Below are positions 1-532 of a DNA stretch of 532 nt, piece after piece. The translations under genes were made by a program, and so were the position numbers. Position 1 is the stretch's first letter. Each line of letters opens with the position of its first letter. The DNA lies in the sequence record EF517003.1, one strand, 5' to 3'. Below the pieces are notes generated by a model that searched no databases, was not told where the DNA came from, and saw nothing but the letters and a program-made list of their open reading frames with translations. Origin of the DNA: a phage.

Positions 1-532
1 GCTTCGGTCGTATCCGTGACCTTGAAGCTAAACACTTCAAGAAAAACGTTGAGGAACAACTCAACAAGCGCGTAGGGCACGTCTACAAGAAAGCATTTAT
101 GCAAGTTGTCGAGACTGACATGCTCTCTAAGGGTCTACTCGGTGGCGAGGCGTGGTCTTCGTGGCATAAGGAAGACTCTATTCATGTAGGAGTACGCTGC
201 ATCGAGATGCTCATTGAGTCAACCGGAATGGTTAACTTACACCGCCAAAATGCTGGCGTAGTAGGTCAAGACTCTGAGACTATCGAACTTACATCTGAAT
301 ACGCTGAGGCTATCGCAACCCGTGCAGGTGCGCTGGCTGGCATCTCTCCGATGTTCCAACCTTGCGTAGTTCCTCCTAAGCCGTGGACTGGCATTATTGG
401 TGGTGGCTATTGGGCTAACGGTCGTCGTCCTCTGGCGCTGGTGCGTACTCACAGTAAAAAAGCACTGATGCGTTACGAAGACGTTTACATGCCTGAGGTG
501 TACAAAGCGATTAACATTGCGCAAAACACCGC
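1..532 (+). CDS. 1: T7-type single-subunit DNA-dependent RNA polymerase, internal fragment (about residues 151-326 of an ~883-aa protein); partial at both ends, first complete codon at nt 3, last complete codon ends at nt 530
   Basis: Frame 3 is open over the whole window and translates to FGRIRDLEAKHFKKNVEEQLNKRVGHVYKKAFMQVVETDMLSKGLLGGEAWSSWHKEDSIHVGVRCIEMLIESTGMVNLHRQNAGVVGQDSETIELTSEYAEAIATRAGALAGISPMFQPCVVPPKPWTGIIGGGYWANGRRPLALVRTHSKKALMRYEDVYMPEVYKAINIAQNT. I recognise this as the N-terminal-domain region of phage T7 RNA polymerase, with 171 of 176 residues identical by my recollection of the T7 protein. It is not in the supplied ORF track, presumably because the window holds neither a start nor a stop codon for it. 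Confidence 0.96.
6..167 (+). other. 1: Coding segment for the N-terminal refolding region (subdomain H, approx. residues 152-205) of T7 RNAP, which rearranges at the initiation-to-elongation transition
   Basis: Position within the recognised T7 RNAP alignment. Boundaries are approximate and come from established structural literature on T7 RNAP initiation versus elongation complexes. Confidence 0.55.
66..92 (+). other. 1: Coding segment for the protease-sensitive surface loop K172-R173 ... K179-K180 (NKRVGHVYKK), the classical nicking site of T7 RNAP and the usual split point for engineered split T7 RNAP
   Basis: Codons aag cgc at nt 66-71 and aag aaa at nt 87-92 encode K172-R173 and K179-K180 by alignment to T7 RNAP numbering. 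The functional assignment is established knowledge about T7 RNAP, not deduced from the sequence. Confidence 0.6.
240..287 (+). other. 1: Coding segment for the promoter-melting intercalating beta-hairpin of T7 RNAP (approx. residues 230-245; HRQNAGVVGQDSETIE, Val237 at nt 261-263)
   Basis: Translated motif HRQNAGVVGQDSETIE is identical to the T7 RNAP intercalating hairpin region as I recall it. Domain boundaries are approximate and taken from established structural knowledge of T7 RNAP, not derived from the sequence. Confidence 0.7.

Follow-up and report, generated by a model that had tools for sequence, protein, structure and literature searches.

A 532-nt piece of phage T7 gene 1 with nine GC>AT transitions is probably a mutagenised RNA polymerase allele

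Results and discussion

The stretch of DNA analysed here, 532 nt long and referred to below as the window, is an internal piece of gene 1 of phage T7, which codes for the phage RNA polymerase, and it departs from the T7 reference sequence at nine sites, every one of them a GC>AT transition. The most likely explanation is that the window is an artificially mutagenised copy of gene 1, that the treatment was most likely a guanine alkylation of the MNNG type, and that the amino acid changes it produced are passengers. The evidence lies in the direction, sequence context, clustering and coding effect of the nine changes, in their comparison with natural relatives of T7 and with T7 lines that had been mutagenised, and in the absence of the variant from the sequence collections that were searched.

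The window is an internal piece of T7 gene 1

Positions 1 to 532 of the window, read on the plus strand, correspond to nt 449-980 of gene 1 and to positions 3619-4150 of the T7 genome NC_001604, in which gene 1 itself occupies 3171-5822. The reading frame extends from nt 3 to nt 530, codes for residues 151-326, and is open, with 0 stops and 0 indels relative to T7. When phage sequences were searched with megablast, about a hundred T7 records matched the window over its full length with 98.3% identity and 9 mismatches. The nearest natural relatives have at most 93.8% nucleotide identity, and all the phage records above 95% are T7 or laboratory derivatives of T7. At the protein level, phmmer against the T7 RNA polymerase chains in the PDB (1cez, 1qln, 1msw, and others) gave E=5e-114 and an ungapped alignment over residues 151-326 with exactly five mismatches, and the Pfam family RPOL_N was matched with E=2.6e-13 and 50.5 bits, the cut-off being 30.1. 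The window belongs to the T7 RNA polymerase, that is, to gene 1 of Teseptimavirus T7. It is identical to the wild-type gene at 523 of 532 nt and to the wild-type enzyme (PDB 1CEZ, 1QLN, 1MSW) at 171 of 176 residues, and the domain layout is common to both, but it differs from the wild type by the nine transitions, five of which change the protein.

The nine differences from T7

The window was compared base by base with gene 1 of NC_001604. On the coding strand five of the nine transitions are G>A and four are C>T, and by their effect five are missense and four are silent. The missense changes are A188T (nt 114-116, GCT>ACT, by G>A at nt 114), S228N (nt 234-236, AGC>AAC, by G>A at nt 235), A247T (nt 291-293, GCA>ACA, by G291A), P248S (nt 294-296, CCT>TCT, by C294T) and T282I (nt 396-398, ACT>ATT, by C>T at nt 397). 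A first-pass annotation, made from the letters of the sequence without database searches, had named these same five substitutions at these codons. The base comparison and phmmer bear out all five, and at 188, 228, 247, 248 and 282 NC_001604 has the reference residues that the annotation assumed. The silent changes are G>A at nt 32 (K160, AAG>AAA), C290T (L246), G>A at nt 458 (K302, AAG>AAA) and C>T at nt 473 (R307, CGC>CGT); neither these four nor the uniform GC>AT direction was mentioned in that annotation.

The mutated G comes after an A at nt 32 and after a G at nt 114, and at nt 397, when the G-bearing strand is read, it also comes after an A. The changes at nt 290 and nt 291 form a tandem CG>TA and, together with C294T, make up a cluster of three transitions (nt 290-296, counting the whole codon of P248S). 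The chance of finding three of nine changes inside 5 nt is 0.008. Other records of the T7 lineage that were compared have 0-5 differences from the reference in the window region, and none of the nine window changes is present in any of them. The nine differences exceed what chance or noise would give.

Natural relatives of T7

Nineteen natural relatives were compared, 15 from Teseptimavirus and 4 from Teetrevirus, each of which differs from T7 at 24-93 sites in the window region. The pooled spectrum of 12 of these relatives consists of 171 GC>AT changes, 192 AT>GC changes and 150 transversions, so that GC>AT makes up one third, and only 7.9% of the changed codons in the relatives are missense. 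One relative, PSP2-22, departs from T7 at 24 nucleotides and at 0 amino acids. Under the natural spectrum the probability that nine of nine changes are GC>AT is P~5e-5, and under the natural missense rate the probability of five missense changes in nine is P~3e-4.

The T7 base is found in 19 of 19 relatives at nt 114, 294, 397 and 458, in 18 of 19 at nt 32, in 16 of 19 at nt 473 and in 15 of 19 at nt 291. Since the outgroup relatives mostly carry the T7 base at the changed sites, the window states are derived. The residues A188 and T282 are invariant in 19 of 19 relatives, and beyond these A188 is conserved in one distant fragment (P0001) and T282 in another (P0002). On the other hand, the positions that flank the intercalating hairpin of the polymerase vary across the relatives, residue 228 being S, N, T, H or E, residue 247 being A, T or S, and residue 248 being P, H or Q. 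JB01, Bas103, phiA1122 and NC-A naturally have N228, and AV103, phiA1122 and Bas102 naturally have T247, so that phiA1122 has both; T at nt 290 is natural in Bas103. The natural Teseptimavirus polymerases, these and others, are therefore like the window in having N228 and/or T247 and a variable position 248. They are unlike it in that their spectrum is mixed and their changes are mostly silent, and the 19 relatives all lack T188, S248 and I282. There are 173 possible missense GC>AT changes in the window, 13 of which reach states seen in relatives, and the window has two of the 13 (P=0.046). The excess of natural states hints weakly that the allele has been through a viability filter.

Searches of sequence collections

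When the whole window was searched with megablast against phages, plasmids and complete E. coli genomes, the best match was wild-type T7 at 98.3%, and there were 0 plasmid matches. Shorter queries of 61-66 nt from within the window found a 100% match in no phage record, and A188T, P248S and T282I in a T7-like context are absent from all 50,697 phage records. Exact 26-28-mers over the cluster at nt 290-294, over A188T and over T282I gave 0 matches in IMG/VR viral contigs, JGI metagenome contigs and GTDB genome contigs. The 176-aa translation was also searched against a collection of 5.8 billion proteins, from which only two short partial fragments with 64-67% identity were recovered; this search did not recover T7 RNA polymerase itself and was uninformative. 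From the nucleotide searches, the source of the window is not among the records deposited in these collections.

Comparison with mutagenised T7 lines

The deposited T7 isolates K, K115, P and P82 (AY264775-AY264778) served as an empirical control and were compared over 3.7 kb. Lines K and P were reportedly made with nitrosoguanidine. Over the 3.7 kb line K diverges from T7 by 1.22% and line P by 0.74%, and 71 of the 72 differences in the control lines are GC>AT. As in the window, the changes in these lines are almost exclusively G>A or C>T and affect either strand, and the lines have local clusters of changes, a density of about 1% and a raised missense fraction. A purine stands 5' of the mutated G in 34 of 45 cases in line K and 21 of 26 in line P (77%), against a background of 49% (P=2e-4 and 8e-4). 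In the window a purine precedes the mutated G at 7 of 9 sites against a background of 46%, for which P=0.057 with nine events only, and the likelihood ratio of the K/P rate over the background for this 7 of 9 is 6.7. Line K has groups of close changes, such as four in 32 nt inside the window region, its clustering being weak (P=0.08). In line K a stretch of 532 nt holds as many as 10 changes, compared with 9 in the window. At 1.7%, the density of the window exceeds that of line P (P=0.02) and lies high in the range of line K, with which it is compatible (P=0.21).

The control isolates, which we take to be those of Bull et al. 2003, are unlike the window in the sites that are changed. In this region their changes fall at window nt 2, 242, 344, 350, 369, 373, 375 and 480, and because none of the nine window sites is among those changed in K, K115, P or P82, the window does not come from these isolates but from an independent lineage or clone.

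If GC>AT changes fell in the window without selection, missense, nonsense and silent changes would be expected in shares of 64%, 5% and 31%, and the observed ratio of five missense to four silent fits this expectation (P=0.30). The missense fraction is 56% in the window, 64-67% without selection, 33% in lines K and P together and 7.9% in natural relatives, and that of the window is also compatible with the viability-filtered K and P lines (P=0.13). The probability that nine random GC>AT changes include no stop is 0.62. T7 clones that evolved in the laboratory in the absence of a chemical mutagen have acquired A>G (Q184R) and T>A in this region, and a published error-prone-PCR library of T7 RNA polymerase has AT>GC and GC>AT mixed. 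Mutagenesis of T7 by nitrosoguanidine or hydroxylamine is said, in a secondary statement, to yield mainly GC>AT (PMC6042481).

Probable origin of the nine changes

Based on these comparisons, we propose that an artificial mutagen with a specificity for GC>AT acted on a T7 gene 1 lineage or clone. The likeliest agent would be a guanine alkylator such as N-methyl-N'-nitro-N-nitrosoguanidine (MNNG), repeatedly applied to a small replicon, and published serially mutagenised T7 lines are a precedent for such repeated exposure. O6-alkylguanine would pair with T at replication and would give G>A on whichever strand bore the G. Mispairing of this kind would produce the five G>A and four C>T changes on the plus strand, the preference for a purine before the G, and multiple changes close together. 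As there are nine events and the purine preference in the window has the P value given above, MNNG is not separable from EMS, hydroxylamine or another process specific for cytosine or guanine. The five substitutions would be passengers of the mutation pressure, with at most a filter that kept the polymerase working, and there would be no selected functional module around the hairpin. A mutagenised chromosomal copy of gene 1, as in BL21(DE3), was considered as the source and was rejected because a genome-wide load of 1.7% would be inviable for a bacterium. For the same reason, the replicon would have been small, a phage or a plasmid, or else the mutagenesis would have been targeted.

Position of the substitutions in the polymerase

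In the structural literature on T7 RNA polymerase the intercalating hairpin comprises about residues 230-245 (nt 240-287). Three regions of the protein, all on the plus strand, carry the five substitutions. Residues 151-190 (nt 3-122) form the H subdomain, which refolds on promoter escape and in which A188T lies. Residues 191-267 (nt 123-353) are the second part of the promoter-binding domain, which includes the hairpin and carries S228N, A247T and P248S. Residues 251-296 (nt 303-440) are the C-linker, where T282I falls inside the conserved PPKPWTGITGGGYW stretch. These domain ranges are from PMC11617373; the H subdomain is also described in bioRxiv 2024.05.23.595468, where residues 232, 233, 237, 238, 242 and 243 are named as belonging to the hairpin, and one published study puts A247 where the hairpin passes into the J-helix. 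The published ranges agree with the earlier placement of S228N and the pair A247T/P248S on the flanks of the hairpin and of A188T in the region that refolds. The first-pass annotation had gone on to describe the substitutions as concentrated around the hairpin, with a possible effect on its function. As a description of placement this is correct, but the functional meaning does not hold because the 5-nt cluster that contains A247T and P248S has a silent third member at nt 290. Thus, the concentration beside the hairpin is mutational and not functional. What the cluster records is the one-directional, clustered spectrum of a mutagen at tolerant positions, and not functional tuning.

Since the states at 228 and 247 are natural ones and position 248 is variable, S228N, A247T and P248S are probably near-neutral. 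A188T and T282I would be the likeliest to carry a cost because their positions are invariant, and they are the two substitutions that may mildly impair stability or the transition from initiation to elongation. Taken over all five, the substitutions are probably neutral or mildly harmful.

Alternative explanations

An origin by cytosine deamination has to be weighed against guanine alkylation because it likewise predicts only GC>AT, on both strands. It could have come about by hydroxylamine or a bisulfite-type treatment of phage or plasmid DNA, by heat, or by a cytidine-deaminase mutator, such as a base editor, a system like MutaT7 or a deaminase-bearing mutagenesis plasmid. Taken alone, the preference for a 5' purine in the window falls short of significance, and in this respect it is in keeping with a cytosine-directed agent; against such an agent stands the 7 of 9 rate, which equals that of lines K and P. 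A TC context, as expected from deaminases of the APOBEC1 or DddA type, is found in 2 of 9 changes against a background of 23%, which is no enrichment. The close grouping of changes at nt 290-294, tandem in part, also speaks against cytosine deamination and fits nitrosoguanidine, since tandem and tightly clustered mutations are a classic feature of that mutagen. Hydroxylamine mutagenesis of T7, on the other hand, is documented and is dominated by GC>AT (PMC6042481). On balance we regard a cytosine-directed treatment as unlikely. The mutated C comes after a G in 5 of the 9 changes. That T7 was hypermutated in vivo by a bacterial anti-phage DNA cytosine deaminase, acting in the manner of APOBEC3 on a dsDNA phage but without a preference for TC, appears extremely unlikely. 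The differences could also be non-biological, either sequencing errors from cytosine deamination in a low-coverage assembly or a sequence altered deliberately or synthetically. Deamination damage yields only C>T and G>A, and the window sequence is absent from the collections searched, both of which are as this explanation would have it. But damage errors seldom persist into a consensus at nine sites per 532 nt, and neither the 5'-purine context nor the enrichment for tolerated natural states is expected from random damage or editing. The intact frame also counts against it, though weakly in view of the probability of 0.62 for no stop. We therefore consider a non-biological origin very improbable.

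The first-pass annotation had left it between neutral natural polymorphism and functional selection, and neither is favoured by the spectrum, the missense fraction and the ratio of missense to silent changes. If the window came from a wild T7-like phage, its differences would be ordinary lineage polymorphisms, and the alignment with relatives that the annotation had suggested does lend something to this, with N228 and T247 both natural, together in phiA1122, T at nt 290 present in Bas103 and position 248 naturally variable. However, the full set occurs in none of the phage, plasmid, E. coli, viral, metagenome and genome sequences searched, A188T, P248S and T282I being absent both from the 19 relatives and from the phage records, and exact matches were found in none of the viral, metagenome and genome contigs. 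Moreover, natural relatives do not come closer than the 93.8% given above, anything closer being T7 itself, and the spectrum and the missense fraction are unlike natural divergence. A wild origin is thus very unlikely. Selection of the five substitutions, by directed evolution or by adaptation of the phage, for promoter opening, abortive cycling or by-products, with the hairpin flanks as its core, would agree with the three missense changes on those flanks and with the two changes that reach natural states more often than random GC>AT missense changes would. A simple viability filter would enrich natural states equally, however, and there is no missense excess, the ratio of 5:4 standing against 6.2:2.8 expected without selection. 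Four silent changes have the same spectrum as the missense ones, and one of them, at nt 290, is part of the cluster on the side of the hairpin. The translation of the window has the wild-type residue at F162, K180, V214, E222 and P266, all of them positions that have been changed in engineered T7 RNA polymerases. In the papers searched for the window substitutions in this enzyme, A247T is mentioned and P248S, T282I, S228N and A188T are not. A247T was published together with F162S, in the variant Mut7, from a droplet screen for less dsRNA, and also in the PROSS thermostability design PCD9. These two engineered enzymes are like the window in A247T only. Their partner substitutions are missing from the window, which has the wild-type F162, and the window adds four silent changes of the mutagen spectrum, and nothing indicates that it derives from constructs of the Mut7 or PCD9 type. 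Selection for an altered function is accordingly improbable, and artificial mutagenesis of gene 1 is the explanation that we prefer.

Significance

Few enzymes have been studied as thoroughly as T7 RNA polymerase, and T7 genomes that stay viable under a heavy load of induced mutations have been in the literature since 2003, so that an allele of this kind adds little that is new. If the variant came from a viable phage, it would mean that the enzyme tolerates A188T and T282I at invariant positions, in addition to S228N, A247T and P248S, and such tolerance may be of interest in engineering the N-terminal domain of polymerases used for in vitro transcription.

Other features of the window

When both strands of the window were searched against Rfam, no family came near its threshold, the best match (E=0.7) scoring 18 bits where the gathering threshold is 80, and there are no promoter-like sites in the 532 nt. 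One terminator-like hairpin is present on the minus strand, a count that is at chance level. The open reading frames on the minus strand of the window are mechanical ones that lie inside gene 1.

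Clustered and recurrent mutations in other T7 isolates

The deposited sequences of the mutagenised T7 isolate K and its descendant K115 (AY264775 and AY264776) offer a second case, in the same part of gene 1, of mutations packed closely together. In isolate K, four GC>AT changes lie within 32 nt, at positions equivalent to nt 344, 350, 369, and 375 of the window, and one further change is at the equivalent of nt 480. All five of these changes are kept in K115.

A different change, Q184R, which is caused by an A>G substitution and falls within the polymerase's H subdomain, is common to many clones deposited as laboratory-evolved 'Mutant Escherichia phage T7', among them MZ375237, MZ375285, and OL964748. 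The substitution is at the equivalent of window nt 103, in codon 184 of gene 1, and this codon is wild-type in the window. The clone T7_270L also has a silent T>A change in codon 298. That Q184R recurs in so many records suggests that it either came from a founder or was adaptive in those experiments.

Minor open reading frames and a hairpin

On the minus strand, antisense to gene 1, nt 237-524 of the window hold an ORF of 95 amino acids that starts with TTG. Smaller ORFs are at nt 106-189 and 397-468 on the plus strand and at nt 266-394 on the minus strand. All of these ORFs, the 95-residue one included, are mechanical and lie within sequence known to be coding; there is no support for their expression. 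A terminator-like hairpin, with a 7-bp stem followed by a T-run, is also antisense to gene 1 (nt 47-66, minus strand). Because one such hairpin was observed against 0.5 expected from shuffled sequences, its occurrence is at chance level.

Unusual database records

The record of Salmonella phage PSP2-22 (ON886116.1) bears an UNVERIFIED_ORG flag. Its 532-nt stretch differs from T7 at 24 nucleotides and the encoded protein is identical, whereas its RNA polymerase CDS, annotated at 23041-24372, is only 1,332 nt long instead of ~2,652 nt. The short CDS may be due to a downstream frameshift, or to a fault in assembly or annotation there.

In the large protein collection the only matches were P0001 and P0002, which are short partial fragments of T7-like RNA polymerases; T7 RNA polymerase itself was absent from the matches, which is odd given how common it is. 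The contigs bearing these fragments are 295-395 nt long, are labelled Streptococcus danieliae and Xylella fastidiosa, and are probably phage contamination or misattributed.

A single phage record that gives Acinetobacter baumannii as the host has 95-99% identity to sub-windows of T7 gene 1, and T7 itself matches the same sub-windows at 95-99% identity. Acinetobacter baumannii is an unexpected host for a T7-identical polymerase gene.
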